A DNA stretch of 64,000 bases from Candidatus Woesearchaeota archaeon (GCA_018303325.1 JAGVYH010000001.1:24849-88848), one strand, 5' to 3'; counted from the first letter of the stretch, positions 1-63,351 are shown. Notes: a model not told the origin generated them from the letters alone. Numbers and translations: made by a program.

Positions 1-1
1 T

Positions 2-1987
2 TATTTATCGCCTCATTTAACAAGAATAGGATTAAGCGCAACAATTGCTCCGCTTGAAGAGGTTGGGAGTTTTCTCGTCGGCGCAAATAGGGAATGTAAA
101 ATAGTGAATGTGCAGTTCATAAAAGAAATGGACTTGAAAGTGCTTTGTCCTGTTAAAGATTTAATTGGTGTAGAGCATGCCCTTATGCACCATTCAATGT
201 ATGAAATGATGGATAAATTAATACAGGAGCATAAGACTACACTGATTTTCACGAATACAAGAAGCGCAACTGAGCGTGTTGTTGATTTTCTTAAAGAGAA
301 ATTTCCTGCAAAATATACTGAAAATATTGGAGCGCATCATGGCAGCCTGAGCGTTACTCACCGCAGAAAGATAGAAACACAATTGAGAGAGGGAAAGCTT
401 AAAGTTTGCGTAAGCTCAACTTCCTTGGAATTAGGGATTGACATTGGTTATGTTGACTTAGTTCTTTGCTTAGGCAGCCCGAAGTCAGTTGCAAGAGCAC
501 TTCAAAGAATAGGGCGTTCAGGGCACAGGCTGCATGAAACCACAAAAGGGAGAATAATTGTTCTAGACAGGGATGATTTGGTGGAATGCGCAGTATTGCT
601 AAAATCAGCAATCGAAAGAAAGATTGACAAGATTCATATTCCCACAAATGCATTGGATGTTCTCGCGCAGCAGATTCATGGACTGTGCTTAGAACAGAAA
701 TGGAATGTAAATGAATTATATAATTTGATCAAGCAAAGTTACTGCTATAAATATCTTCAAAAAAAAGATTTTATAGAAGTTCTTGAATTTCTGAGCGGCA
801 AATTTGCAAGCCTTGAAGACAGGCATGTTTATGCAAAGATTTGGTTTGATGAAGTTTCACAGGAAGCAGGGAAGAGAGGGAGAATGAGCAGAGTTATTTA
901 CATGACAAATATAGGTACAATTCCCGACGAGACATTTATAACTGTAAAAGTTGGAGAGGCAGTTATCGGCAAATTAGACGAAGCATTTTTGGAAAGGCTA
1001 AAAAGAGGGGATGTTTTTGTTCTCGGAGGAGAGCAGTATGAATTTCTCTATGCAAAAGGTATGGTTGCACTTGTCAAACCAGCTCTTCAGCGCCCGCCGA
1101 ATATCCCTTCATGGTTCAGCGAAATGCTGCCACTCAGCTTCGACTTGGGGCTAGAAATTGGAAGATTCAGAAAATTAATGGAAGAAAAGTTCAAGGCAGA
1201 AAAACCAGAGAAGGAAATAAAGGATTTCATAAACACCTATCTCTATGTCGACGAAAACAGCGCAAATGCAATTTATAATTATTTTAAAGAGCAGTATGAT
1301 TATATCGGCGAAATACCAACAGACAAAAAGATAATTATTGAACATTATGAAGACCAATACGGAAAAAAGATGCTGTTTCATTCTTTATACGGCAGAAGGG
1401 TTAATGATGTTTTAAGCAGGGCAATAGCACTTGCAATTTCCAGAACAGAGCATAAGGATGTTGAGATTGGGATAAATGACAATGGCTTTTATATCAGCGC
1501 TGAGAAATCAATCCACCCGAAAAAAGCATTGGAATTGCTAAAGAGCGAAAAGATGGAGCTGGTGATGAGGGCTGCTATTGACAAGACAGAAGTTCTTAGG
1601 AGAAGATTCAGGCATTGCGCAGCAAGAGCGCTGATGATATTAAGAAGTTATAAGGGGCATACAAAACATGTTGGAAGACAGCAGGTAAATTCAATGCTGT
1701 TATTAACTGCTGTCAAAAGAATAAGCGATGATTTTTGCATTCTTAAAGAGGCGAGAAGAGAAGTTCTTGAAGATTTGATGGATATTGAAAACGCAAAAAA
1801 GATCATTAAAGGCATTGAAGACAAAAAAATTGCGGTAATTGAAATCCATACGAAAATACCGACGCCGTTTGCATTTAATCTTGCTCTGCAGGGATATGTT
1901 GATGTTTTGAAAATAGAGGAGAAGGTTGAATTCTTGAGAAGAATGCATCAGTTGGTTTTAGCGAAGATTGGGTTGGGGAAGAAGTGA
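2..1987 (+). CDS. Lhr-type (DEAD/DEAH) ATP-dependent helicase, C-terminal part; the 5' end lies outside the window
   Basis: The frame is open from position 2 (…RIGLSATIAPLEEV… helicase motif III). Helicase C motifs are present (HHGSLSV…RRKIE, RIGRSGHR) and the long C-terminal region is typical of Lhr. Confidence 0.75.
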   Translation, partial: YLSPHLTRIGLSATIAPLEEVGSFLVGANRECKIVNVQFIKEMDLKVLCPVKDLIGVEHALMHHSMYEMMDKLIQEHKTTLIFTNTRSATERVVDFLKEKFPAKYTENIGAHHGSLSVTHRRKIETQLREGKLKVCVSSTSLELGIDIGYVDLVLCLGSPKSVARALQRIGRSGHRLHETTKGRIIVLDRDDLVECAVLLKSAIERKIDKIHIPTNALDVLAQQIHGLCLEQKWNVNELYNLIKQSYCYKYLQKKDFIEVLEFLSGKFASLEDRHVYAKIWFDEVSQEAGKRGRMSRVIYMTNIGTIPDETFITVKVGEAVIGKLDEAFLERLKRGDVFVLGGEQYEFLYAKGMVALVKPALQRPPNIPSWFSEMLPLSFDLGLEIGRFRKLMEEKFKAEKPEKEIKDFINTYLYVDENSANAIYNYFKEQYDYIGEIPTDKKIIIEHYEDQYGKKMLFHSLYGRRVNDVLSRAIALAISRTEHKDVEIGINDNGFYISAEKSIHPKKALELLKSEKMELVMRAAIDKTEVLRRRFRHCAARALMILRSYKGHTKHVGRQQVNSMLLLTAVKRISDDFCILKEARREVLEDLMDIENAKKIIKGIEDKKIAVIEIHTKIPTPFAFNLALQGYVDVLKIEEKVEFLRRMHQLVLAKIGLGKK

Positions 1988-4936: not shown

Positions 4937-5039
4937 CTAAACTGCGAATAGTTATGGATATAAAAACATTTCCATTGTTTTTTGCTCTTGTTTTTTCCAA
5001 AAAATAATTTTATAATAAATAGTTATATAGTAAGTAACT

Positions 5040-5400
5040 TAAATTATTGTACATCTCGTGTTACTTACTATATATACTAAAAGTCCTTAGCTTCCGAACA
5101 AAAAACAAGGACTTTTGTATATACAAATGGAATTAGTTTGTTCGAAAACTAATTCCATTTAGTATATAACAAACACAGTAACTTTCAGTAATATAGCAAA
5201 CCACAAACATCTTATCCATTTAGTTGTGGTCTGCTGAATATTCAACCAACAAATTTATACTTAACTATTGGTTGGTTGAATATAACTCGTTGTGTTTGTT
5301 ATATTGAACGAACTAAACAATATTGATAAGTAGTTTTAGTTCGTTAGCTATTCGTGGACTTTAAGTAAATGGATAAAGATATTAAAGTCCACCACTATAT
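5040..5400. repeat. Cluster of at least five different hairpin modules, including a 'tatactaaaagt' double-hairpin element at 5071-5168 and a 'ggactttaa' hairpin at 5353-5398
   Basis: The inverted repeats are read directly. The same module families recur elsewhere in the window. Confidence 0.65.
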
Positions 5401-6394: not shown

Positions 6395-6561
6395 TTAGCA
6401 TACCTCGGTTGTTAAGTTCTTTGTAAAATCAATCATTAATTGATAATTAGATAAGTGGGTATATAATCTATTTATAAATCTTTTGTTCAACGAAATATTT
6501 ATAAACTCGTATAAAATCTTCAGATTAAAGATTAAAATTAGGGTGATAAGGCTAACTAATC

Positions 6562-6707
6562 GGGCCCGTAGCTTAGCCTGGAGAAATTAAGCTTAAAATA
6601 AGACTATTTCAGGCAATGGAGCACTGCTCTTATATGACTGTGCTGCATACAAAAAATAGCACTCCTATGATAAGCAGGGGTCGTGAGTTCGAATCTCGCC
6701 GGGCCCA
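6562..6707 (+). tRNA. tRNA gene with multiple introns (acceptor GGGCCCG/CGGGCCC, T-arm GTGAG-TTCGAAT-CTCGC). The isotype is not resolved; the anticodon may be UAU.
   Basis: The acceptor and T-arm are canonical. About 70 nt of extra sequence lies between the D-arm and the T-arm, which fits an intron at 37/38 plus a non-canonical intron. Confidence 0.6.
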
Positions 6708-6997
6708 TTTAGATTACATTTAATTAATGACCAGCGAATACTCAGAAACAAGCGGATACTCAGAGAAAAATAGATAATGTGACCGAGCAACGAAGTTGCG
6801 TAGGTCGCATGATTTTTTCCGAGGTTTTGATAAAAAGCTCGTGGGAATCTCGCCGGGCCCATTTAGATTACAGTTAATTAATGGCTAGCGAATACCCAGA
6901 AAAAATAGATTATGTGACCGAGCAACGAAGTTGCGTAGGTCGCATGATTCTTTTCCGAGGTTTTGATAAAAAGCTCGTGGGAATCTCGCCGGGCCCA
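6708..6997 (+). repeat. Two tandem units of about 140 bp. Each ends by recreating the tRNA 3' terminus (gaatctcgccgggccca) with a degenerate T-loop, and each contains a GCAAC-GAA-GTTGC hairpin.
   Basis: Direct comparison of 6719-6861 with 6862-6997. The 17-nt tRNA 3' end occurs three times (6691-6707, 6845-6861, 6981-6997). Confidence 0.7.
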
Positions 6998-7183
6998 TTT
7001 TTAGCTCATTTAGCTTTAAATAGTTAGGTTATAATTAGTTTATACACAATTATATAGTAAGTGACGTAAATTTTTATACAAATCGTGTCACTTACTCTAT
7101 TTGTCGGACATAACAAATGTATAACTATTTATGTCCGACATTATAATAAATTTATATATTACTAATAAAATCATGTTCATATT

Positions 7184-7317
7184 GCCTCGGTAGTGTAGTC
7201 CGGCCCATCATTTTGCCCTTTCGAGTTTTATTGAATAGGCAAAGAAAGGCAAAGACCCGGGTTCAAATATTCCAAAGGAGATCAAATCCTTCGGATTTGA
7301 AAGTCCCGGCCGAGGCA
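7184..7317 (+). tRNA. tRNA with introns, including a 36-nt intron at the T-loop/T-stem junction. The likely anticodon is UUC (Glu), with a 13-nt intron at 37/38.
   Basis: Acceptor GCCTCGG/CCGAGGC plus A. T-arm CCGGG-TTCAAAT-[intron]-CCCGG. Anticodon stem TTGCC/GGCAA with loop CTTTCG|A. Confidence 0.55.
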
Positions 7318-8188: not shown

Positions 8189-8372
8189 CGCTCTCAACTA
8201 GTTTGTGGGACGCAGTCCCCCGTCCCATGAAAAGTTTTTTACGTTTTTTAATCGTTATATAATTCGTTTAAGTTTAAAATAATAAATCCTTAATTAAATC
8301 ATCATGAACGTGTCCAATCAGGTAGGAAATAAAAAAAGAATTATGGAAAGGGTGGCTTCGCCCATGAACTAA
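8189..8372 (+). repeat. GC-hairpin-terminated intergenic element (family E), copy 1
   Basis: Left end cgctctcaac…GGGACgcaGTCCCccgtcccatga. Right end …gtgtccaatcaggtaggaaataaa…ggtggcttcgccc. These match the copies at 41237, 43928(-), 50085, 53537, 55226 and 58781. Confidence 0.75.
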
Positions 8373-8385
8373 TAAAACAGTTTAT

Positions 8386-10497
8386 TTAATAATTCTTAAT
8401 CAAGCTTTCAATAACTTCTTCCTTCCATCCTGCTTTGATTAATGCTGATTTAATTGACTCTTTTGGCATACCTTTCGCAGTATAATATCTGATATAATTT
8501 AATATTTGTTCACGCTCGTTTTTGTCCATAAACATTGCGTTATATTTTGTAAACAATTGCTGGATTGTGGGTTTATCCCAGCCTAAATTAATTAGCTGAA
8601 CAATGACTTGGTCTTTTGTCAGCCCGTTTTCTAACTGTGACTCAACATAATTAACAAAATTCTGTTCTATTGCCGATGTTTGCTGCGCAAGCTGCAGCGT
8701 CATTGGCTGAGCGAACATCGCTGACTGAACATTTTGGGGTTTTGTTTGCTGCATAGCCATATTATTTTGCTGTAAAAAACTAGGAGATTGCATAGAGGTT
8801 GTGTCTTGTTTTGTTGGTTGAGTTGTCTGATTTGTTGTTTGATTTGTTGATTGACTTCTTAATGCAAGCTCTCGTTTATGCATAAAAATTAATGAAGCAA
8901 TTAAACTTCCAATTAAAACAAATATAACAACACCCCACCAGTATGTTTTTCCTTTTGCTAATATGCTTATATTAGGTTGTTTTGTTAACGCTTTTCCAAC
9001 AACACCTTTTTCTGCTCCAAATTTTTGTTCTTGCTTCTGTTGTTTGGATGCAGCCATTTGTTGTGTTTGCTGCTGCGAAAATGTTAATTCTTCTGATGGC
9101 TCTGATGGTTCTAGCGCAGATTCATCATAAGTTTGTTCGCCGGATAAATCATTAATTTCTTCTCCACCAGCTAAACCATCCGAAGCAATTCCTTCAGGAG
9201 GTAACTGTCCTGATAATTGTTGTGTTGATGGAACCGATGGTTGTTGTAAGAAAGGTGGTTGTTGCAATCCTGTTTGTTGAGGTGGTGTTCCTTGTTGTTC
9301 ATCTTCTTCATAATCTTCTTCTTTATATCCTGCAGGCTGGCAAACGCCCATGCTGCTGCATACATAATTTTTTGCGCATTTATGCTGCTCATCGCATTGT
9401 ATACAGATTAAATAGTCTTGACTGCAAAACATTCCTGTTGTGCATTTAGTGTTGTCTGGTTCTCCATTATCATTCATGCAATCAATAATATCTAAATCAC
9501 ATATTCCTTCAAAACATAAAAACCCTTGCTGGCAATCTGCAGGTGTTTGCTCTGAGCAGGATGTTTTGCATTTGCCTGTATTGTCACAAGCAAAACCTGC
9601 TGTGCAGTCTTTTGATTGTGTTGATATGGTACATTCTGGCGTTGGAATAATTGGTGGTGGTGATGGTGAAGGAAGAGTTGAACCTAAAAGATTAGATGCT
9701 GATGCTGGAATAGTTTTGGCTAGTGGTGGTGTAGTTGGCGTGGAAACACATTCGCCTGTTGCTTTATTGCATATTTCATTTTCTGCGCAGTTTAAATCGT
9801 CAGTACATCCTAACGGTGTTTCGCAGATGCCTTCGTTGCATATCTCTCCTTGTGCGCAGGCAGGAACACATTCTGTCGGCGACAGAGGAACAGGAACACA
9901 TACATTATTCTCGCAGGTTTCTGTTTCTTCGCAGGCAGGAACACATTCTGTCGGCGACAGAGGAACAGGAACACATACATTATTCTCGCAGGTTTCTGTT
10001 TCTTTGCACGCAGGAACACATTCTATCGGCGACAGAGTAATTGAAGACACGCATATATTATTCTCGCAAGTTTCTGTTTCTTTGCACGCAGGAACACATT
10101 CTGTCGGCGACAGAGAAATAGGAACACATACATTATTCTCACAGGTTTCTGTTTCTTCGCAGGCAGGTGTACATTCTATTGATTGTGTTACAACATCTTC
10201 AACACATACATTATTCTCGCAATGCTGCCCTTCAATACATTCTGGAGTACAGCCAGTAAGAGTTTGTCCTTGTGTTCCGTCTGTTCCTTCTTTCGGCGCA
10301 TTCTCAGCACATATACTATTCTCGCAGTGCTCATTCACCCCGCAATCTTCATCTGCTTGGCATACTTCTCCAACTGCCTTTCCAAAGAAATCTTGGTTTA
10401 ATGTGCTAAATAAAAAGACAGAACTAACTAGTATAAGGATAATAGTAAGATATATTGCTATTTGCAATGGTTTTGTGAGCTGGATTTCTTTTGGCAT
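8386..10497 (-). CDS. Secreted Cys-rich surface protein: signal/TM, five tandem Cys-rich modules, a Thr/Pro/Gln-rich stalk, a TM helix, and a conserved cytoplasmic tail
   Basis: The N-terminal hydrophobic segment, the repeated ECVPACxETETCENNxCVP modules, the TM YWWGVVIFVLIGSLIASLIF, and a tail homologous to the tails of the 1574-aa and 2260-aa proteins. Confidence 0.7.
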   Translation of the reverse strand: MPKEIQLTKPLQIAIYLTIILILVSSVFLFSTLNQDFFGKAVGEVCQADEDCGVNEHCENSICAENAPKEGTDGTQGQTLTGCTPECIEGQHCENNVCVEDVVTQSIECTPACEETETCENNVCVPISLSPTECVPACKETETCENNICVSSITLSPIECVPACKETETCENNVCVPVPLSPTECVPACEETETCENNVCVPVPLSPTECVPACAQGEICNEGICETPLGCTDDLNCAENEICNKATGECVSTPTTPPLAKTIPASASNLLGSTLPSPSPPPIIPTPECTISTQSKDCTAGFACDNTGKCKTSCSEQTPADCQQGFLCFEGICDLDIIDCMNDNGEPDNTKCTTGMFCSQDYLICIQCDEQHKCAKNYVCSSMGVCQPAGYKEEDYEEDEQQGTPPQQTGLQQPPFLQQPSVPSTQQLSGQLPPEGIASDGLAGGEEINDLSGEQTYDESALEPSEPSEELTFSQQQTQQMAASKQQKQEQKFGAEKGVVGKALTKQPNISILAKGKTYWWGVVIFVLIGSLIASLIFMHKRELALRSQSTNQTTNQTTQPTKQDTTSMQSPSFLQQNNMAMQQTKPQNVQSAMFAQPMTLQLAQQTSAIEQNFVNYVESQLENGLTKDQVIVQLINLGWDKPTIQQLFTKYNAMFMDKNEREQILNYIRYYTAKGMPKESIKSALIKAGWKEEVIESLIKNY
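9790..10210. repeat. Intragenic tandem repeats of about 75 bp (five units) that encode the Cys-rich modules
   Basis: Near-identical DNA units are visible (…ggaacacattctgtcggcgacagaggaacaggaacacatacattattctcgcaggtttctgtttctt…). Confidence 0.8.
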
Positions 10498-10648: not shown

Positions 10649-11185
10649 TTATAGCAATTTCTTCATCTCAAATACAAATCCTTTTGCTCTCTCCAAAGAG
10701 GTTACTGCTTTGCCTTGTTTTGCCTGCTCATCCATTTGGTATTGAAATTTTGAGCGTTTTTCCCGCTCTTCATCAAGAGATTTCAACAAGGCATCTGCTC
10801 GTTGAGACATTAATTCCATTGCATCTTCTTGGGCATTTTCATATTCTTCCAATAGGTTTTTCTTGAGTTTATCTCGAACAAAAACAATAATTGCATCTGC
10901 TGTTACTTTATGGCTAACCTTATCTCCTACTTTATATCCTAAATTCAATAGAACAGCATTGGCAATGTAATACATTGAATAGTATGAAGCAACAATTACC
11001 CAAAGAAAAGGGTGATATTCTTTACTTTCCAATGCAAGAAGTTTTTTGGCTGTTTCCAAAGAAATATCAGCATTCACTATATACATTGCTTTGGCAGTTT
11101 CATTTGTCTGTTTCTTCAGCAGACTATCTTGTAGATACTGCCTTACATTTGACTCCGCTTCTTTAATACGTTTTTGGTCAAGCAT
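10649..11185 (-). CDS. HEPN-domain protein, the toxin-like partner of a HEPN/MNT module
   Basis: Helical protein of about 180 aa. Its start overlaps the stop of the upstream MNT gene by 8 nt. Confidence 0.55.
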   Translation of the reverse strand: MLDQKRIKEAESNVRQYLQDSLLKKQTNETAKAMYIVNADISLETAKKLLALESKEYHPFLWVIVASYYSMYYIANAVLLNLGYKVGDKVSHKVTADAIIVFVRDKLKKNLLEEYENAQEDAMELMSQRADALLKSLDEEREKRSKFQYQMDEQAKQGKAVTSLERAKGFVFEMKKLL

Positions 11186-11753
11186 TTTTCAGTTTATAGT
11201 AAGTTTCAATTCCATACAAGATTATATTATTTTCTATTGCCTCTTGTATTACATTTGAGGTTTTGGAATCTTTCATCCGTATAAATTCCTCTTCTGTAAA
11301 TACCAAAACATGAGTGTTTAGAGGAATTAAAGAGAGAATATCTGAAATTTTAGGTTCAAAATTGCTCTCATTAGATATAAATAAGATGTCAATATCAGAT
11401 GAGGTTGTTTGTTTACCTTTTGAATAAGAACCAAATAAAAGTAAGGTAAACAAACTTGTTTTTACTTTTGACATAATTTCTTTGTAGAGTTGGTTAATAT
11501 TCTTGTTTTTAAGGATGTTTTCTCTTCTTTCATTTTCTGCTTCATAAATTTCAATGCAGTAACACTTTTCGTTTAATTCACATAAAGAGCTTTTTCCTAC
11601 TGTTTGAACTTTGAGAACCTTTTTTTCGATGAGTCTTTGTACTGCGGTATAGGTTATTCTATAATCTGCTTTAATTTGTTTAGCAATTTCTCTAATTGTT
11701 TTTGGTTTTTTGTTTCCGATAAAATGCCTAACTATTTTTAGCTCTGTTTTCAT
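11178..11753 (-). CDS. Minimal nucleotidyltransferase (MNT) with an N-terminal wHTH, the antitoxin-like partner of HEPN
   Basis: Motif LLLFGSYSKGKQTTSSDIDILFIS, an N-terminal HTH (TIREIAKQI…), and overlap with the HEPN gene. Confidence 0.7.
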   Translation of the reverse strand: MKTELKIVRHFIGNKKPKTIREIAKQIKADYRITYTAVQRLIEKKVLKVQTVGKSSLCELNEKCYCIEIYEAENERRENILKNKNINQLYKEIMSKVKTSLFTLLLFGSYSKGKQTTSSDIDILFISNESNFEPKISDILSLIPLNTHVLVFTEEEFIRMKDSKTSNVIQEAIENNIILYGIETYYKLKNA

Positions 11754-21385: not shown

Positions 21386-21943
21386 TTATTTTGCATCATT
21401 AATGTTTCCATTACCACTTCCAGAGCCAGTTCCACTTCCAGTAAATTGTGACAAAAGAGGATTCATACAATCTACACATACTTCTAAACTAACTGATAAT
21501 TGTTGTGTAGTAGTGTCATAAGATCCAACTATTAGTTTATACCATACACCATTATATAAAAATGTGTTTTCACTATTTGGTTCAACATTTGTAAGCATAT
21601 TATTTTGGTCTAATGTTATTTGTGTCGCCTTCCCCACCACCACATCACCATACTTCACCAACATCAATACACCTAATAGTATTATCAGTATCAGCGCAGC
21701 ATACAGGAATATTCCCCAGTAATGTATCTGGGTTTGCGGATTGGTAACGCTTACTGGTGTTTTGGGCGCTTTTGATTTGGTTTGCGCTCTTGTAAAGCTT
21801 ACTGAGGTTTTGGGCGCTTTTATTCGAGTTTGTTGATTAACGCTTAATGGAGTTTGTGGCGCTGTTATCTTGGTTTGTTTAGAAAGATTTAATTTCTTTA
21901 CTTGTGTTTGTTTTATTTTAGCCTTTTTTAGTATAATATTCAT
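21386..21943 (-). CDS. Small N-terminally anchored secreted protein ending in a Gly/Ser tract and NDAK; paralogue of 16585..17046
   Basis: C-terminus TGSGTGSGSGNGNINDAK. TM YWGIFLYAALILIILLGVLML. The N-terminus is Lys/Thr/Pro-repeat rich. Confidence 0.55.
   Translation of the reverse strand: MNIILKKAKIKQTQVKKLNLSKQTKITAPQTPLSVNQQTRIKAPKTSVSFTRAQTKSKAPKTPVSVTNPQTQIHYWGIFLYAALILIILLGVLMLVKYGDVVVGKATQITLDQNNMLTNVEPNSENTFLYNGVWYKLIVGSYDTTTQQLSVSLEVCVDCMNPLLSQFTGSGTGSGSGNGNINDAK
21629..21922. repeat. Direct repeat, copy 1 (294 bp), covering the 5' half of gene 21386..21943. Copy 2 lies at 23717..23962.
   Basis: Near-identical sequence. Copy 2 lacks one 48-bp internal unit. Confidence 0.85.
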
Positions 21944-22121
21944 TTATTTTATTTATTCATTTATATATCTTTTTATTATTTTTTTTAATTTTTATATTAC
22001 TTCATTGTATTTCTGGCATTAAAAGAGGGTATCAATAAAAATTTACGTCACTTACTATACATACAAAAACAACCGAAAGATTTATATATTATATGTAATA
22101 AACATTACCTATTAAGTATTA

Positions 22122-22922
22122 ATGATGACAAAAAAAACAAGAAAAGGATTAGGAGAGAAATCTGCGATAGTATTATCTACACTCTCTGAAAAAAACAAGA
22201 ATATCTTTAATGTAGATGATGTTGCAGCGATTCTTCATGAGAAAAGATCGTCAATAATTAAACTTCTTCATGATTTAACTAAGAAAAGATGGCTTTTTCG
22301 CATAAGTAAAGGAATATATCTTATTCTCCCATTAGAAGCTGGGGCAATGCCAAAGTTTACTGAACATGAATTTATACTTGCATCCAGACTAATTTCACCA
22401 TATTACATCTCTTATTGGTCAGCTCTGAATTATTATGGCTTAACTGAACAGGTCTCCAAAACTATTTTCATCGCTACACTTAAAAGAAAATTAGAAAAGG
22501 AAATAATGGGATTAAAATTCAGGTTTATCACCCTCAACAAAAATAAATTTTTTGGATTCAAAGCGATGCAGTTAAACAATCATATTATCAAAATCGCAGA
22601 AGTAGAAAAAGCTATTATTGATTGTTTGGATTTGCCTCGAAATTGCGGGGGGATAGTTGAAGTAATTAAAGCTATTGATGAAGCTAAAAAAGAAATAGAT
22701 TTTAATAAATTAATAGCTTACGCAAAAAAAATGCAGAATGCAGCAATTCTTAATCGTTTGGGATATATATTAGAATTATTAGGGATTAAAGCTAATATAA
22801 AGCCAAGCAAACATTATGTTATGCTTGATACTATCAGTAAAAAGAAAGGAATATATAACAAAAAATGGAAAATTGTTGAGAATGTTTCAAGGGAAGAACT
22901 ATTATCTTGGAGGGAGCATTAA
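22122..22922 (+). CDS. abiEi: AbiEi-family antitoxin/transcriptional regulator (type IV TA)
   Basis: The architecture and size fit, it overlaps the downstream AbiEii gene, and it is similar to the other two AbiEi-like ORFs at 32838 and 61752. Confidence 0.6.
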   Translation: MMTKKTRKGLGEKSAIVLSTLSEKNKNIFNVDDVAAILHEKRSSIIKLLHDLTKKRWLFRISKGIYLILPLEAGAMPKFTEHEFILASRLISPYYISYWSALNYYGLTEQVSKTIFIATLKRKLEKEIMGLKFRFITLNKNKFFGFKAMQLNNHIIKIAEVEKAIIDCLDLPRNCGGIVEVIKAIDEAKKEIDFNKLIAYAKKMQNAAILNRLGYILELLGIKANIKPSKHYVMLDTISKKKGIYNKKWKIVENVSREELLSWREH

Positions 22923-23713
22923 TGATACCTCTTGCTGAACTAAAACGGATTGCTGCTAAGAATAGTGTAGCTTTAAGTGTAGTTGAGAAAGATTATGCGA
23001 TTACATGGATATTATATGCTTTGGCAGAAACAATGTTCAAAGAGTGTTTTATTTTTAAAGGGGGTACTGCATTAAGAAAAGTATATTTCCCTGCATGGCG
23101 CTACTCTGAAGATTTAGATTTTACAGCAACTAAACTTTTGAATGAAATAGAAGTTAAAGAATTAATTAGCTCAGTTAATTACTATCTTTATGAAAAAATT
23201 AAGATGAGTATAACATATAAATCTTTGTATCTTAATCCAGAATATGCTCAGCTTAAAATTCAGTTTTTGGGACCATTAAATCGCGAAAATACTATAAAGC
23301 TAGATATCAGCTTTAGTGAATTCCTAGTTTTGCCACCAGAAAATAAGCTTATCCACTCAGAATATTCAGATAAAGAAAAACACTTCTTGTATGTTTATTC
23401 ATTGGAAGAAAGCTTAGCAGAAAAAATTAGAAGTATTTTACAGCGAGGAAAAACAAGAGATTATTATGATGTATGGAGAATATTAAAGTGGCATTATAAG
23501 TTGATAAATAAAACAAAAACCAAAGAAATTTTAAATCAAAAGTGCAAATTCAAAAATATTATATGTAATGAAAAACTTCTTTTTGGCCAAGAAAAAGTGG
23601 ATAATGCAAAAAAACATTGGGAAAAAGGATTAGGATACCAAATTAATGATTTACCAGATTTTGATATTGTTATAACTGAATGTAAATACTTACTAATGCA
23701 ATTTTTGAAGTGA
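22907..23713 (+). CDS. abiEii: AbiEii/AbiGii-family nucleotidyltransferase toxin
   Basis: Motif FKGGTALRKVYFPAWRYSEDLDF. Confidence 0.75.
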   Translation: MEGALMIPLAELKRIAAKNSVALSVVEKDYAITWILYALAETMFKECFIFKGGTALRKVYFPAWRYSEDLDFTATKLLNEIEVKELISSVNYYLYEKIKMSITYKSLYLNPEYAQLKIQFLGPLNRENTIKLDISFSEFLVLPPENKLIHSEYSDKEKHFLYVYSLEESLAEKIRSILQRGKTRDYYDVWRILKWHYKLINKTKTKEILNQKCKFKNIICNEKLLFGQEKVDNAKKHWEKGLGYQINDLPDFDIVITECKYLLMQFLK

Positions 23714-23716
23714 CCT

Positions 23717-23962
23717 CTTCCCCACCACCACATCACCATACTTCACCAACATCAATACACCTAATAGTATTATCAGTATCAACGCAGCATACAGGAATAT
23801 TCCCCAGTAATGTATCTGGGTTTGCGGATTGGTAACGCTTACTGGTGTTTTTGGCGCTTTTGTTCGAGTTTGTTGATTAACGCTTAATGGAGTTTGTGGC
23901 GCTGTTATCTTGGTTTGTTTAGAAAGATTTAATTTCTTTACTTGTGTTTGTTTTATTTTAGC
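23717..23962 (-). pseudogene. Duplicated 5' fragment (promoter-proximal region and N-terminal codons, but no start codon) of the 185-aa NDAK-protein gene; copy 2 of the direct repeat
   Basis: About 95% identical to 21629-21922. It diverges just before the ATG. Confidence 0.7.
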
Positions 23963-24118
23963 ATTTTATTTATTTATTTATATATTTTTATGTTATTTTT
24001 CATTCTTCATAGTTTTGGCATTAAAAAATGATACTAAATAGAAATATTTAAATAATAGTATGCATTCATACTGCATAATTTACATAAAAAGTATGCAGTG
24101 GTGATTTTGGGGATTATA

Positions 24119-32837: not shown

Positions 32838-33443
32838 GTGATAGTAATGGGCAAGATAATTAAGATTTATGAGGCATTACTTAATAGAAAAGAAAAGGTG
32901 TGCCACAGAACAGAAGTAGTTGAAATAATAAAGGAATATAATAAAAACCTAGGCCATATTGACTGTGAAAATACTTTAAAATATCTTTCAAGGCATAATT
33001 ATATAAAAAGAATTTTTCTAAATTTTTATTATGTAAATTCTTTGGATGAAAGAGAAAGGAAGTTTTGCAGCTATGAAGATAAAGAACTTCTGTTTACAGT
33101 ACTTAACGGGCTTGGCATAAAATGGTATGTTGGCCTAAATTCATCTTTATATCTTCTTGGGAAAATATGGCAGACACCAAGTGTTTTATCAATAATTAAT
33201 GATAAAATAAGTGGAAGGAAAAAAATATTAGGTTCGAATGTAAGATTTATGAAAATCAAAAGCAGCCTTATTTTTGGGCTTAAAAAAAATAAAACGAAAC
33301 ATAATATAATTTACTGCTATTCAGATTTAACAAAAACTTATCTTGATTTTGTTTATTTTAAAATATCAAAAAAACAGATAAATACAAAGGAAATAGGAAA
33401 ATATCTTAAGAGGTATCCTACTTGGTTCAAAAAATTAATATAA
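32838..33443 (+). CDS. abiEi: AbiEi-like antitoxin (short form)
   Basis: It sits upstream of an AbiEii gene and overlaps it. Its size and HTH-like N-terminus fit. Confidence 0.5.
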   Translation: MIVMGKIIKIYEALLNRKEKVCHRTEVVEIIKEYNKNLGHIDCENTLKYLSRHNYIKRIFLNFYYVNSLDERERKFCSYEDKELLFTVLNGLGIKWYVGLNSSLYLLGKIWQTPSVLSIINDKISGRKKILGSNVRFMKIKSSLIFGLKKNKTKHNIIYCYSDLTKTYLDFVYFKISKKQINTKEIGKYLKRYPTWFKKLI

Positions 33444-34342
33444 ATAAATATGTTGCAGATGTCAAAAAAAATCTTTGTATAGAAGCCCCGGATGAAATAG
33501 TTGAAAAAGATCTGTTGTTGACTCTGATTCTTGCTGAGTTTGAAAAAAGAAAGTTGGAAAAAGAACTGATATTTAAAGGAGGCACTCTTTTGTCAAGAAA
33601 CTATCTGAACTATCATAGATTTTCAGAAGACTTGGATTTTGTTCATAAGGACTCTAATAAATTGCGTGAATTAAAAAGAAATACGCGTGAAAAAAGAATC
33701 AAACAGTTTATAGATTATTTCGTTCCTGAATTAAAAGAAGTTGCAAATATATTAAATTTAGAATTTAGTACAGACAGAAGCAACACAAGATTTTGCACCA
33801 TTCTGCATGGAAGGGTTATTTATATTTTTAGGATTTATTATTCTGAAAATAATTTTATAAAAATTGAAATAAATTTTGTTGAAAAAATAATACACCCCCC
33901 TAAAAGAGTTTCAATAAAAGCGATAACGGACTTTTTTGATTCAAGAGAACTTTTATTTACTCTTGGCCTGAAAATTGAAAATTTTGTTGTTATGAGTTAT
34001 ACTTTAGAAGAAATAGTTCTCGAAAAATATCGTGCAATACTCACAAGAAGCGAGCTTAAGGAACGCGACCTTTTCGATCTTTTTTTAATAAAAAACATAT
34101 TTAATCCTAATATAAACCAGATAGTAGAAAAGATTAAGTGTTCCTCTTTGATAAGGAGAAATCTTAATATTATGATTAAGGAGAAACTCTTACTTCTTGA
34201 AAAAAATGAATTTTTCAGGAGTGATGAGAAAATAGAATATTTGACTATTATTCAGTATAATAAAATAGATTTTGAAAACTTAAAAGAAAAGATTAAACCA
34301 ATATTAATAGAAATTTGCAAGAAATTCTTGGAAATGTATTAA
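33422..34342 (+). CDS. abiEii: AbiEii-family nucleotidyltransferase toxin
   Basis: Motif IFKGGTLLSRNYLNYHRFSEDLDFV. Confidence 0.75.
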   Translation: MVQKININKYVADVKKNLCIEAPDEIVEKDLLLTLILAEFEKRKLEKELIFKGGTLLSRNYLNYHRFSEDLDFVHKDSNKLRELKRNTREKRIKQFIDYFVPELKEVANILNLEFSTDRSNTRFCTILHGRVIYIFRIYYSENNFIKIEINFVEKIIHPPKRVSIKAITDFFDSRELLFTLGLKIENFVVMSYTLEEIVLEKYRAILTRSELKERDLFDLFLIKNIFNPNINQIVEKIKCSSLIRRNLNIMIKEKLLLLEKNEFFRSDEKIEYLTIIQYNKIDFENLKEKIKPILIEICKKFLEMY

Positions 34343-41200: not shown

Positions 41201-41236
41201 AAAGTGTATTTGTTTAGTTGGTTAATGTTTTTTGAC

Positions 41237-41470
41237 CGCTCACAACCCGTAACTAGGGACGCAGTCCCCCGTCCTATGAAAAGTTTAAGTTTTTTCGAAG
41301 AGTTTATTAAAAAATTAAATTTCGAAAAACAAACTAAATTAAATCATGAGACGTGTGGCTTCGCCCAGGAACTATAGCAAAGGCACCAAATTTCCGTAAT
41401 TAATAATGCCTTTGCTATATACGTGGACTTTAACAAAAAAGATACGAATATTAAAGTCCACCATTATAAA
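41237..41470 (+). repeat. Family-E element (short form, 41237-41371) followed by a gcaaaggca hairpin and a 'ggactttaa' hairpin (41422-41470)
   Basis: Conserved termini. The 'ggactttaa' hairpin matches those at 5353-5398 and 44045-44092. Confidence 0.75.
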
Positions 41471-43897: not shown

Positions 43898-43927
43898 AAT
43901 ACAAATAATAGTATTCGTTTTTGTTTA

Positions 43928-44157
43928 GTTCCTGGGCGAAGCCACCCGTCTCATGATGAAGTTTAGGTTTTTTTATTTTAAACTTGAACAGTTTATGTAT
44001 AGGCACGGACATTAATTTTTATATATCCTATCCGTGACTATATTCGCGGACTTTAACAAAATTAATACGAATATTAAAGTCCGCCACTATAACGATTAAA
44101 AAAACGTAAAAAACTTTTCATGAGACGGTGGACTGCGTCCCACAAACGTGTTGGGAG
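43928..44157 (-). repeat. Family-E element in inverted orientation, carrying an internal 'ggactttaa' hairpin (44045-44092) and a cacggataggata…gtccgtgcc hairpin
   Basis: The reverse complement gives a left end gtttgtgggacgcagtccaccgtctcatgaaaag and a right end catcatgagacgggtggcttcgcccaggaac. Confidence 0.75.
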
Positions 44158-49306: not shown

Positions 49307-49460
49307 ATAAGTAAATGTAAAGTAAATAAATATACTAAAAGCACAAAATAATCGAACATTATTTTGTGCTTTTGTATATCTAGGGAATCAGAGATTCCTG
49401 AGAAGTTAGAAAGCTTTGCTTTCCAACTTACAAATTAATAATAATTTATAATAAAAAAAC

Positions 49461-50009: not shown

Positions 50010-50084
50010 ATAATGTTGAGAATAATCATTTTTGTGTTTGTTTAACTGAGTTTGCAGATTTCCTGTTTCTTAATATTTTTATTC

Positions 50085-50256
50085 CGCTCTCAACTCGTAA
50101 CTAAGGGCGAAGTCCACCGTCCTATGATTTTAGTTTAGAGTTTTTTAAGAAAGGTGTAATTAAATTAACAGAAAAAACTAAATCATCATATACGTGTCCA
50201 ATCAGGTAGGAAATAAACTAATTAAAATAGTGAGACTGGTGGCTTCGCCCAGGAAC
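50085..50256 (+). repeat. Family-E element
   Basis: ccgctctcaac…gggcgaagtccaccgtcctatga … gtgtccaatcaggtaggaaataaa … ggtggcttcgcccaggaac. Confidence 0.75.
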
Positions 50257-50322
50257 GAAACAAAAAAAAGTTTAAAATTAGTACAATAAAAAATATCAAA
50301 ACTACACAAAACAACAATTCAT

Positions 50323-53492: not shown

Positions 53493-53536
53493 TATAATGT
53501 TGTTTGTATTTGTTTAGCTGATTAATGTTTTTTGAC

Positions 53537-53975
53537 CGCTCTCAACCCGTAACTAGGGACGCAGTCCCCCGTCCTATGATTATTTTTTAAGTTTTTTAAG
53601 AAATGTGTATTATTGCAGATTAAATGAAAAATTTCTTATTAAGTCGTATTTAATCTGCAAGATTATATACTAAAAGTGATTAATTTTCGTACAAATTAAT
53701 CACTTTTGTATATACAAAAGTGTAAAATAATGTTCGATTATTTTACACTTTTAGTATATTTCAGATTAAATGTAATTTAAGTTTGTTAAATAGTATTTAA
53801 TATGAAAAATTGAAAATTTAATCAATTTATTTTAATTTTCAATAAATTTAAATGAGACTATTTTAATTAAATTTACAATAAACTAACAGAAAAAAATAAA
53901 TCATCATATACGTGTCCAATCAGGTAAGAAATAAATAAATTAATAATAGTAAGACATGTGGCTTCGCCCAAGAAC
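53537..53975 (+). repeat. Family-E element, long form (about 440 bp). It carries a 'cagattaaatg…atttaatctg' hairpin and a complete 'tatactaaaagt' double-hairpin module (53674-53759).
   Basis: The termini are conserved with the other copies. The internal modules match 3700-3750 and 62466-62560. Confidence 0.75.
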
Positions 53976-54037
53976 TGAATAAATCTATTTTTTCTGCAAA
54001 ACAATCTATAATATTTATAAATCAACGTCAATTTTCC

Positions 54038-55225: not shown

Positions 55226-55382
55226 CTGCTCTCCACCTGTTTGTGGGACGCAGTCCACGAATAAAGGTAAGATGGTAATATGGTTTGATGGTCTGAAGGT
55301 ACGACGGAAATAAGTCGCTGCCATCAAACCATCCGACCTTCAAACCTTCTTACCTTTTTTAGTGAACGGGTTGGACATGCCA
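55226..55382 (+). repeat. Family-E element with a long internal hairpin (ggtaagatggtaatatggtttgatggtctgaaggt … accttcaaaccttcttacc)
   Basis: Left end gctctccacctgtttgtgggacgcagtccacg. The internal hairpin is shared with the copy at 58781. Confidence 0.7.
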
Positions 55383-58780: not shown

Positions 58781-58935
58781 CGCTCTCAACCCGTTTGTGG
58801 GACGCAGTCCCACGTCTCATGAATATAAAAGTAAGAAGGTCTGAAGGTCAGATGGTTTGATTATAACGGCTAATTTCTGTCGCAACATTTCGTAGTACCT
58901 TCTTACCTTCAAACCATCTAACTCTCTTACTTTTA
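58781..58935 (+). repeat. Family-E element with a long internal hairpin (aagtaagaaggtctgaaggtcagatggtttg … caaaccatctaactctcttactt)
   Basis: Left end cgctctcaacccgtttgtgggacgcagtcccacgtctcatgaa. Confidence 0.7.
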
Positions 58936-61751: not shown

Positions 61752-62465
61752 ATGCAAGCCATCACGTTTCTAAAAGAAATAGAACAGTTTCAGTCTCCTG
61801 TTTTATCATTCAATGATGTAATTAGAATTATAGGAAAAAGCAAAGAATATTCAAGAGTGTATATTCATCGCCTTAAACAAAAGAATATTATAACTGAAAT
61901 AGAAAAAGGGAAATATGCGCTATCTGAAGAGCCCTTTGAGATTGCCTCGAACCTTGTCTTTCCTTCATATATCTCATTCATGGGTGCATATTATATTTAT
62001 GGGTTCACTACACAAATCCCCATAATTGCTCAAATAGTTTGCCAAAACCCTAAAAAAGAAATGAACATAGGGAATATTAAGGTAAACTTTATTTCTTTTA
62101 AGAATAAAAGAATATTTGGTTATAAAAGAGAACGATTTAGAGATAAATATATCTTCATTGCTGAACCAGAAAAGGCCATAATAGATTCTTTATACCTTCC
62201 AAAATACTGCCCAATAAGTGAAAGTTATGAAGCACTTGAAAATAAAGAGTTAGACATAAATAAACTTTTAGAATACGGATTAAGGATGAATTCAATTATA
62301 ACTCTAAAAAGGTTAGGTTATCTTTTGGAACTACATGGTATAGATATTTATGAAAAAGTAAAGCACAAATTAAACAAAAGATATGACTTATTAAATCCAT
62401 TTATGAAAACCTCTAAAAAGAATTCATCAAAGTGGAAACTCAACATAAATGATGTGTTTGAATGA
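61752..62465 (+). CDS. abiEi: AbiEi-like antitoxin
   Basis: It sits upstream of an AbiEii gene. The fold resembles the other AbiEi ORFs (…KAIIDSLYLPKYC…, RLGYLLEL). Confidence 0.55.
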   Translation: MQAITFLKEIEQFQSPVLSFNDVIRIIGKSKEYSRVYIHRLKQKNIITEIEKGKYALSEEPFEIASNLVFPSYISFMGAYYIYGFTTQIPIIAQIVCQNPKKEMNIGNIKVNFISFKNKRIFGYKRERFRDKYIFIAEPEKAIIDSLYLPKYCPISESYEALENKELDINKLLEYGLRMNSIITLKRLGYLLELHGIDIYEKVKHKLNKRYDLLNPFMKTSKKNSSKWKLNINDVFE

Positions 62466-62560
62466 TATATACTAAAAGTCATTAATTTTCGAACAAATTA
62501 ATGACTTTTGTATATACAAAAGACCAAAATAAAGTACGATTATTTTGGTCTTTTAGTATA
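62466..62560. repeat. 'tatactaaaagt' double-hairpin module inserted between abiEi and abiEii
   Basis: tatatactaaaagtcattaattttcgaacaaattaatgacttttgtatatacaaaagaccaaaataaagtacgattattttggtcttttagtata. The stems covary with the copies at 53674 and 5071. Confidence 0.8.
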
Positions 62561-62580: not shown

Positions 62581-63351
62581 GTGATAATCAAAACTGAACT
62601 TGTAAAATATTGCAATGTATTGGGGTTAAACCTTGGACAAGCAGAGATAGATTATATTCAGCATTTATTCCTTATCTTTTTTTCAAAGCATTCTGGAAAC
62701 AGTTATATATTTAAGGGAGGAACAGCACTACAAAAAGGTTATGGGTTGAACAGATTTAGTATTGACCTTGATTTTACACAAGTCCATGAAAATAATATAA
62801 ATGAGATTATTAATAAAATCAGCAGTGATATAAGTGATTTTGGCTATAAAACAGAAGTAGAGGAAAAGAAAACAATAGGTAAAACATTTATTCTCAAGAT
62901 AAATGGACCATTATACATTGGCACCAAAATGAGTATTTGTAATCTAAAAATTGAGATTAGCCAGCGGGAAAGCATTTTGCTTAAGCCACAATTTAAGGAG
63001 ATTATGCCTAGATACAATGATCTACAACCTTACACCATAATGATCATGGATGAGGAAGAAATACTTGCGGAGAAAGTAAGAGCAATTATGACAAGGAATA
63101 AACCGAGAGATGTGTTTGACTTAGGATTTATTTTAAAAAGAGGGGCTAAATTTCAGTTGGAGTTCATAAATAAAAAATTAGAGTATTATAAAGAGCAATT
63201 TGAGATGAAGAGATTTATTGATAAATTAAAGGAAAAAGAAAATATATGGGAAAAAGAAATGAGAAATTATGTTAAGGACGTTCCAGAGTTCAAAACAATT
63301 TTAAAAGAGATAACGAACGCAATAAATAATAATAAGGATAAATATAAATGA
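62581..63351 (+). CDS. abiEii: AbiEii-family nucleotidyltransferase toxin
   Basis: Motif IFKGGTALQKGYGLNRFSIDLDFT. Confidence 0.75.
   Translation: MIIKTELVKYCNVLGLNLGQAEIDYIQHLFLIFFSKHSGNSYIFKGGTALQKGYGLNRFSIDLDFTQVHENNINEIINKISSDISDFGYKTEVEEKKTIGKTFILKINGPLYIGTKMSICNLKIEISQRESILLKPQFKEIMPRYNDLQPYTIMIMDEEEILAEKVRAIMTRNKPRDVFDLGFILKRGAKFQLEFINKKLEYYKEQFEMKRFIDKLKEKENIWEKEMRNYVKDVPEFKTILKEITNAINNNKDKYK

Follow-up and report, generated by a model that had tools for sequence, protein, structure and literature searches.

Units ending in copied tRNA termini at five tRNA genes of groundwater Woesearchaeota: a possible non-autonomous insertion element

What makes archaeal tRNA genes so prone to interruption, fragmentation and splitting, and whether mobile elements are behind it, is a long-standing question, on which the support has so far been mostly indirect. 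The locus analyzed here raises it in a compact form, as the 3' end of an intron-containing tRNA gene recurs twice downstream of the gene, each time at the end of a tandem unit. The original prediction took the units either for the trace of integrative elements that target tRNA genes, with the repeats as att cores and integrase-bearing relatives to be expected, or for 3' halves of trans-split tRNAs, with complementary 5' halves to be expected. What, then, are the units, and how did they come to carry the end of the neighbouring tRNA?

The tRNA-Ile gene and the units beside it

The window, i.e., the whole 64-kb stretch of DNA that was analyzed, is AT-rich (GC content ~32%) and comes from a DPANN archaeon. 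Proteins identical to those encoded in the window are assigned to Candidatus Woesearchaeota in public records, and the contigs derive from aquifer metagenomes. Archaeal housekeeping genes for the Lhr helicase, L21e and RpoF/Rpb4 surround the tRNA-Ile array. At least eight independent contigs, assembled from the metagenomes of several samples, contain the array locus, which rules out an assembly artefact. The features of the locus are as follows:

6562..6707, plus strand: tRNA-Ile(UAU) gene, 146 nt, exons 6562-6581, 6617-6634 and 6672-6707
6582-6616, plus strand: D-loop intron of tRNA-Ile(UAU), 35 nt
6635-6671, plus strand: anticodon-loop intron of tRNA-Ile(UAU) at the canonical position 37/38, 37 nt
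6691..6707, plus strand: core copy 1, tRNA positions G57-A73 inside the intact tRNA, the left copy of the duplication; identity runs through TTT to 6710
6708..6776, plus strand: variable 5' part (spacer) of unit A, with an internal duplication of ~19 nt relative to unit B
6777..6844, plus strand: conserved module of unit A, comprising hairpin 1 (6777-6810), T6, hairpin 2 and the end GCTCGTGG
6845..6861, plus strand: core copy 2, a displaced fragment of the tRNA-Ile 3' end
6862..6911, plus strand: variable 5' part (spacer) of unit B, 76% identical to the spacer of L012
6912..6980, plus strand: conserved module of unit B, its T tract with one extra C
6981..6997, plus strand: core copy 3, a displaced fragment, followed by a T5 flank at 6998-7002
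7184..7317, plus strand: tRNA-Glu(UUC), interrupted by one intron in the anticodon loop and another in the T loop (59/60; BHB 4/5/1), not hit by the element

No tRNA was called in the window by ARAGORN with default settings or by Rfam at gathering thresholds; a low-score Rfam match to tmRNA/tRNA-like ends was noted at the tRNA-Ile gene. The intron mode of ARAGORN proposed a His(atg) tRNA with one 70-nt intron, a mis-assignment, as manual intron removal led to tRNA-Ile: excision of both introns left a 74-nt sequence that ARAGORN called tRNA-Ile(tat). The multi-intron tRNA with about 70 nt of extra sequence, postulated from the sequence alone, was thus resolved into a gene with two introns of 35 and 37 nt, both of relaxed bulge-helix-bulge (BHB) geometry. 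Its acceptor stem and T arm, described before as canonical, are a perfect GGGCCCG/CGGGCCC stem and a GTGAG-TTCGAAT-CTCGC arm. In a more distant relative (L017, with an L21e protein 66% identical), the tRNA-Ile exons are the same and only the anticodon intron is present.

The last 17 nt of tRNA-Ile, GAATCTCGCCGGGCCCA, occur exactly three times, at 6691, 6845 and 6981, against an expectation of zero occurrences (100 shuffles, up to three mismatches allowed). The second and third copies, at 6845-6861 and 6981-6997 as predicted, close unit A (6708-6861, 154 bp) and unit B (6862-6997, 136 bp), respectively. The two units, for which about 90% identity had been claimed, proved to be 96% identical over aligned columns and 84% identical over all columns, with one 19-nt and one 1-nt indel. 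The predicted GCAAC-GAA-GTTGC hairpin was found in both of them.

The module at other tRNA genes

The right-hand two thirds of each unit correspond to a module, ATGTGACCGAGCAACGAAGTTGCGTAGGTCGCATGATTTTTTCCGAGGTTTTGATAAAAAGCTC. Its 64-nt two-hairpin part spans ATGTGACC...AAAAAGCTC: hairpin 1 is imperfect, 34 nt in length and carries a GA/GUA internal loop, next comes the T6 tract and then the second hairpin, and the module ends with ...AAAAAGCTC and four purine-rich nucleotides. A scan of public collections with the first hairpin of the module led to five further loci (the tRNA-Val and tRNA-Trp assignments are our own readings):

L012 (related MAG JACQSP01): orthologous tRNA-Ile locus with a single unit
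L013 and L015: tRNA-Thr(CGU), a spacer of 16 nt, the module, then GATTCTCATCAGGGGCT, equal to Thr 57-73
L014: intron-containing tRNA-Val(UAC), four tandem 136-bp units, each ending with GAATtCGGTAGGGCCCA, equal to Val 57-73 with one change
L011: tRNA-Pro(CGG), on the opposite strand, the module, then an 18-nt copy of the tRNA-Pro 5' end, positions -1 to 17

About 600 bp off the tRNA-Pro site of L011, a profile search detected a diverged module beside one more tRNA gene:

L011, 6104->5870: tRNA-Trp(CCA), a diverged module, T, AATCCCTCCGTCCCCA, equal to Trp 58-73, then TTTTT

The module is 100% identical at tRNA-Ile (the window and L012), tRNA-Thr (L013/L015), tRNA-Val (L014) and tRNA-Pro (L011), 64 consecutive columns being invariant across the copies at these four tRNAs. 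The tRNA-Trp subfamily keeps the two-hairpin fold and the same GCTCGTGG end, with at least three compensatory stem changes in hairpin 1. Common to both subfamilies are the motifs CYGAGC, CGAAG and TTTTCCGARG and the end AAAAAGCTCGTGG. Altogether, the module was found at five of the seven tRNA genes seen in the clade, the module-free ones being tRNA-Glu in the window, which has an intron in its T loop, and the second tRNA in L014. An nhmmer profile search revealed no further module copies in the window, and no additional tRNA was encountered in the 10 kb beyond its right end.

With the module on the top strand, the order at the five sites is the same: the tRNA with its terminal segment, the variable part, the module, four nucleotides, the segment copy and the flank. 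The variable 5' part is 16-69 nt long, and the four purine-rich nucleotides between module and copy are GTGG, AGAG or GCAG. The variable parts of the Ile and Val units can be weakly aligned, and those at Thr and Pro look shorter, sharing only 8-25 nt adjoining the module; the element accordingly has a fixed 3' end and a variable 5' part. At all five tRNAs, the module precedes a copy of the end of the very tRNA beside it. As the copied end is always that of the adjacent tRNA, pre-existing homology is not required. The Ile, Thr and Val copies comprise positions 57-73, the Trp copy 58-73 and the Pro copy, in inverted orientation, the 5' end up to the D loop (-1..17). The junction between module and copy is sharp (56/57 three times, 57/58 once and 17/18 once); on the far side, identity between the copies fades 1-6 nt past the gene end. 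The duplications at the five sites amount to 20, 18, 23, 21 and 18 bp, and part of this variable length of 18-23 bp could reflect chance matches among T-rich trailers. No DNA motif common to the T-loop and D-loop targets was found. The element contains neither terminal inverted repeats nor an ORF. It does not qualify as a MITE (a DDE transposon derivative), which would carry such inverted repeats and be flanked by a short duplication whose length is constant. As for the integrase-bearing elements expected under the original prediction, no integrase or recombinase Pfam family was detected, either among the scanned ORFs of the 64-kb window or next to the L011 and L014 insertions, and the same holds for the transposase and reverse transcriptase families. 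The number of independent insertions known is five.

The number of units per locus varies, being 1, 2 or 4, and one contig (L002) carries only one unit at tRNA-Ile. In the tRNA-Val array, a C-to-T change not seen in the tRNA itself is common to the three internal fragments, with one more change in the last fragment; the change common to the internal fragments indicates that the units were copied from one another rather than freshly inserted. In more distant relatives the element is absent from tRNA-Ile (L017) and tRNA-Thr (L020 and L021), although the same tRNAs are present. An empty tRNA-Pro site was sought via the neighbouring gene for a CDP-alcohol phosphatidyltransferase, and none was found: the closest homolog lies on an 821-bp contig and the next relative lacks synteny. 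The exact module was absent from viral contigs; a degenerate pattern gave a single chance hit within a phage polymerase gene, which was rejected.

Two contigs (L006 and L008) break inside the module and a third (L009) chimerises at it, as expected of a dispersed repeat, so that the family accounts for the assembly breaks at these tRNA loci. In L009 (1-2890, a Rifle contig), a tRNA-Thr locus is fused to a tRNA-Ile array exactly within the module. This fusion is probably an assembly chimera caused by the dispersed repeat, the alternative being a real recombinant.

Between the window and L012, the module is identical at 68/68 positions, the spacer at 76% and the flanking intergenic DNA at 75-89%, so that the module is as conserved as the tRNA exons. 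Such identity next to decayed neighbours needs copies acquired recently and in parallel, homogenisation by gene conversion, or a function at each locus. Relative to shuffles, folding z-scores of the module strand lay between -2.7 and -4.2, compared with -0.9 for the complementary strand. Rfam (15) gave no match to the module even at E<=10, and the similarity of the module to the resident tRNA introns was insignificant.

Several known types of structured sequence were considered for the module and set aside. C/D-box and H/ACA readings were rejected on inspection, as no fitting CUGA/RUGAUGA spacing was present. An integron attC reading failed since the R-box-like GCAAC/GTTGC lies at the tip of the hairpin and not at its base. 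Against a TnpB/omega-RNA-like scaffold with a 3' guide, the targets in T and D loops showed no consistent upstream motif, and no gene for a nuclease turned up.

Explanations of the units

The reading that we prefer, with a chance of being right that approaches one in two, is that the units are copies of a small, gene-less, non-autonomous element which enters the loop nearest the end of a tRNA gene, duplicates its target and keeps the tRNA intact. The element would be about 85-120 bp long (roughly 110 bases) and confined to a narrow clade of groundwater Woesearchaeota. Its anatomy, the five targets, the duplications, the copy-number variation and the absence in outgroups are matters of direct observation; its mobility, the order of nicking and an enzyme acting in trans are what we infer. 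As its target it would use either gene end, irrespective of strand, entering the T loop at 56/57 on one side and the D loop at 17/18 on the other. A precise nick in the loop could be joined to the fixed 3' end of the element, the stretch from the nick to just past the gene end (18-23 bp) would be recopied by fill-in or displacement synthesis, and the recopied stretch would be joined imprecisely to the 5' side of the element. The insertion would leave the tRNA gene intact, accompanied by the element and a displaced fragment of the tRNA terminus. Arrays might later grow or shrink via unequal recombination or slippage between units, and this expansion and contraction would lead to one or two units at tRNA-Ile and four at tRNA-Val. 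Only duplications reaching past the gene end would survive, since shorter ones would destroy an essential tRNA, hence a minimum length of 17-18 bp. Candidates for the trans-acting enzyme include a Y1/HUH nickase like those of IS200 and RAYT elements, and a reverse transcriptase. Several points count against the insertion model: the internal T6 and T5 tracts of the module would hinder a full-length RNA intermediate in archaea, a selfish insertion in decay should show less conservation than the module does, the independent insertions number only five and no enzyme gene was found in the ORFs scanned, the targets in T and D loops have no DNA motif in common, part of the variation in duplication length may be due to chance, and the relaxed BHB that can be drawn at 59/60 would allow a role at the RNA level.

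Integrative elements and islands that target tRNA genes rely on tyrosine integrases, P4-like islands and the archaeal elements of SSV/pNOB8 type being examples. Like them, the units sit at a tRNA gene that is regenerated, with a displaced terminal fragment at the far end; the repeat runs from the T loop to the 3' end and tandem occupancy is possible. The 17-nt repeats could accordingly be att cores, and the units miniature circles mobilised in trans (CIME/IMEX-like) or what deletion has left of integrated plasmids or viruses whose target is the stretch between the T loop and the 3' end. A regenerated tRNA with a displaced 3' fragment is the textbook mark of tRNA-targeting islands (PMC4383910), the phage Ms6 targets the T loop and 3' end of tRNA-Ala and can be retargeted by edits of the attP core (PMC1762012), the L002 allele corresponds to a precise core-by-core loss of unit B, and tandem units resemble accretion. 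We nevertheless consider this origin unlikely. One identical 64-nt arm stands beside four different cores, with a fifth core next to the diverged subfamily, and a circle with the Ile core entering another tRNA, e.g., tRNA-Thr, would leave a chimeric, dead tRNA. One core is the inverted 5' end of tRNA-Pro. The identity starts at G57/A58, so that the TTC and the 5' strand of the T stem, and with them the T-loop crossover region, are missing, unlike in the 26-bp core of Ms6 (PMC1762012), which takes in the whole 7-nt T loop and the T-stem strands on both sides of it. The bracketed DNA is gene-free, without cargo and only 102-154 bp long (an insert of the order of 100 bp); no integrase was found in the scanned ORFs of the window or at the four other loci, the module is missing from the viral collection, and five independent deletions all sparing the same 64 nt would be implausible. 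Thus, of the predicted reiterated att cores there remain the direct repeats of a tRNA end that bracket inserted DNA and the regenerated intact tRNA, whereas the integrase, the gene content, a single common core and the T-arm crossover are lacking. The other half of the original prediction, 3' halves for trans-spliced split tRNAs as in Nanoarchaeum and Caldivirga, we regard as scarcely credible. The DPANN lineage is noted for disrupted tRNA genes, and every unit ends with a perfect acceptor 3' strand and discriminator; yet an intact cognate gene adjoins the fragment in 5/5 cases, the fragment is only 17 nt long and lacks T54-C56 (the TTC of the T loop), the tRNA-Pro fragment is an antisense 5' end and the Val fragments carry disabling mutations. 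The expected 5' halves did not appear either, as the window contains a single GGGCCCG and a scan of it for a complementary leader (a stretch of at least 16 nt) found none.

It could also be argued that the units are giant BHB introns or alternative 3' exons, in which case the endonuclease would cut at 59/60 twice and release a unit-length (circular) RNA with the same mature tRNA as the outcome; the 5' strand of the T stem of the tRNA would pair with the downstream copy. A giant intron cut exactly at 56/57 failed the strict BHB search. The repeat makes the junctions equivalent, so that a 3-nt shift of the boundary gives a relaxed BHB at 59/60, in which the T-loop UUCG pairs with the module end UGGG and is flanked by the T stem paired to the downstream copy (central helix 4/4, exon helix 5 bp). 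In position and score this motif equals the genuine T-loop intron of the neighbouring tRNA-Glu, the tRNA-Pro arrangement also permits a motif (H=4, inner helix of 6 bp), and D- and T-loop introns are clearly spliced in this lineage. The exon helix, however, is an automatic result of the duplication, 3/4 of the central pairs are G-U, Val and Trp reach only 3/4, the T6 tract should stop read-through, and the module is dissimilar to the resident introns. Splicing would moreover be unnecessary because the upstream gene is already intact. The relaxed motif weakly suggests that read-through transcripts could be spliced with release of unit-length RNA, and as an account of the units we rate this reading as quite improbable. 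Somewhat more weight, though still well within the unlikely range, is given to a host-level role, in which the module would be a structured RNA or single-stranded DNA signal at tRNA loci (a protein-binding, L7Ae/K-turn-like sRNA, or a terminator or insulator set free along with the tRNA transcript), its spread and the tRNA-end copies being secondary. The module is conserved like tRNA exons while the adjoining spacer and intergenic DNA diverge by 11-25%, its fold is retained in two subfamilies through compensatory changes and is stable in a strand-specific manner, the T6 after hairpin 1 is terminator-like, and 5/7 tRNA genes of the clade carry it. Against such a role speak the missing Rfam match and the absence of a conserved promoter, as well as the reversed orientation relative to the tRNA at tRNA-Pro; at four tRNAs the tail has the sense of the 3' end, at tRNA-Pro it is antisense to the 5' end, and no single RNA-pairing role would accommodate both. 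The tandem arrays of 2-4 units, the copy-number polymorphism and the need for a tRNA-end copy are left unexplained by a host function.

When the preferred insertion element is compared with other mobile sequences, its five insertions resemble SINE/LINE-type target-primed insertion in being non-autonomous, with a precise, fixed 3' end, a variable 5' end, long variable duplications and no inverted repeats. In contrast to SINEs and LINEs, the module element has no poly-A or 3' repeat, its internal oligo-T tracts speak against a full-length transcript, and no reverse transcriptase partner was found in the scanned ORFs; to our knowledge, no elements of the SINE/LINE type have been described in archaea. 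IS200/IS605 and REP/REPIN sequences, the latter with RAYT Y1 transposases, are single-strand elements with hairpin ends; they have gene-less derivatives mobilised in trans and insert beside a fixed tetra- or pentanucleotide, without target duplication and without specificity for tRNA. Conserved imperfect, bulged hairpins without genes, whose structure is kept via compensatory changes, are shared by the module with IS200/IS605 and REP/REPIN sequences, but its left flanks have no common motif and its targets are duplicated. Among related Nanobdellota, a RAYT has been reported in one order (bioRxiv 10.64898/2026.05.13.725050). Split and multi-intron archaeal tRNA genes (Nanoarchaeum, Caldivirga, and the intron transposition of Thermoproteales) offer the same type of genome, breakpoints at the loop positions of non-canonical introns and a drawable BHB-like motif; they differ in that here an intact gene is present, the fragments are unneeded and the module is unrelated to the resident introns.

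The nearest published cases are an insertion in Caldiarchaeum and the casposon and integrase systems. In Caldiarchaeum, a 1.8-kb recombinase-bearing insertion left a tRNA-Thr fragment (PMC3293823). The casposon of Aciduliprofundum boonei resides at tRNA-Pro, where the 3' end target is recognised via the T-loop region, and casposons have terminal inverted repeats, a fixed duplication of 14-15 bp, cas1 and polB (PMC5137440). This casposon demonstrates that duplication-generating integration on the T-loop region of a tRNA, with tandem arrays, exists in archaea. Like casposons, the module element lies at a tRNA end with a long duplication, an intact tRNA and tandem arrays separated by duplicated segments; unlike them, it has neither inverted repeats nor genes, and its duplication is variable (18-23 bp).

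In the searchable literature, no description of such an element was found. It would be the first archaeal element to enter the T or D loop of a tRNA gene by copying that is one-ended and nick-primed, through SINE-like retroposition or HUH-nickase-primed DNA synthesis, and the tRNA splicing machinery could also excise a circular RNA from it; this we regard as unlikely, though not remote. There is likewise a real, if minor, chance that the insertion mechanism is of a kind not yet known in archaea. If such nick-primed copying did take place, the element would be a live agent of archaeal tRNA-gene disruption, i.e., of ectopic introns, fragments and splits. One tiny element is found at five tRNA genes, at the loop positions of non-canonical introns and in genomes with intron-rich tRNAs, and a family so compact, recurrent and polymorphic makes the mobile-element hypothesis of tRNA disruption testable. 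It also warns that tRNA-end fragments in DPANN genomes are not by default split-tRNA halves or prophage borders.

Other small repeats and introns nearby

The T-loop intron (59/60) of tRNA-Glu(UUC), which has a good BHB, was compared between the window (7184-7317) and L012 (3130-3330). In L012 the intron occupies the same position with a completely different, longer body, only the last TGAAAG being common; different bodies at one site point to rapid intron turnover. ARAGORN misses or mis-calls tRNA-Trp(CCA) with its D-loop intron (L011 6104-6000, minus strand) and tRNA-Val(UAC) with its 53-nt intron (L014 8176-8052, minus strand). The tRNA-Trp and tRNA-Val genes have been reported missing in many complete genomes of Woesearchaeales and Pacearchaeales, which may be explained by overlooked intron-bearing genes without the need for split genes.

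Other families of small repeats were noted at the following sites:

Window 8189-8378, 41205-41381, 43918-44157 (minus strand), 50053-50265, 53505-53984, 55227-55269 and 58781-58823; L011 5630-5770; L013 6345-6475: two-box intergenic repeat
Window 5004-5171, 7031-7143, 49328-49379, 53663-53807 and 62463-62560: long AT-rich palindromes
Window 5346-5400, 41415-41469 and 44038-44092: hairpin repeat GTGGACTTTAA...TTAAAGTCCAC, sites other than tRNA-Ile

The abundant two-box repeat consists of box 1, CCGCTCTCAAC.CGTTTGTGGGACGCAGTCC.CCGTC.CATGA, and box 2, ATGAGACGGGTGGCTTCGCCCAGGAAC, placed 60-200 nt apart with variable AT-rich DNA in between; the inner ends of the boxes are complementary and each box contains a GC hairpin. 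It looks like a REPIN/BIME-like or sRNA family. The AT-rich palindromes form families of the type TATATAC...hairpin...GTATATA, whose copies differ by compensatory stem changes, e.g., GTGATTAAT/ATTAATCAC versus GTCATTAAT/ATTAATGAC. One palindrome pair is located between the Ile array and tRNA-Glu, within more than 100 bp of DNA for which L012 has no counterpart. The hairpin repeat GTGGACTTTAA...TTAAAGTCCAC is found directly upstream of tRNA-Ile in L012 (2680-2775) and not in the window (6545-6560); it is a further small element polymorphic at the tRNA-Ile locus.

Repeats were also seen in and around protein-coding genes of the window. A 75-nt in-frame tandem repeat (9821-10179) lies in ORF 8386-10497 (minus strand), which encodes a 703-aa protein; the counterpart in other contigs of the population has 678 aa, exactly one repeat fewer. 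A segment of ~340 bp (21622-21957) recurs ~2 kb downstream (23710-23997) with 87-94% identity, the two copies flanking an AbiEi/AbiEii toxin-antitoxin pair (22122-23713). A second AbiEii gene and a HEPN/nucleotidyltransferase pair are located near the AbiEi/AbiEii pair (32838-34342; 10649-11753), and a third AbiEii gene is present at 62581-63351.
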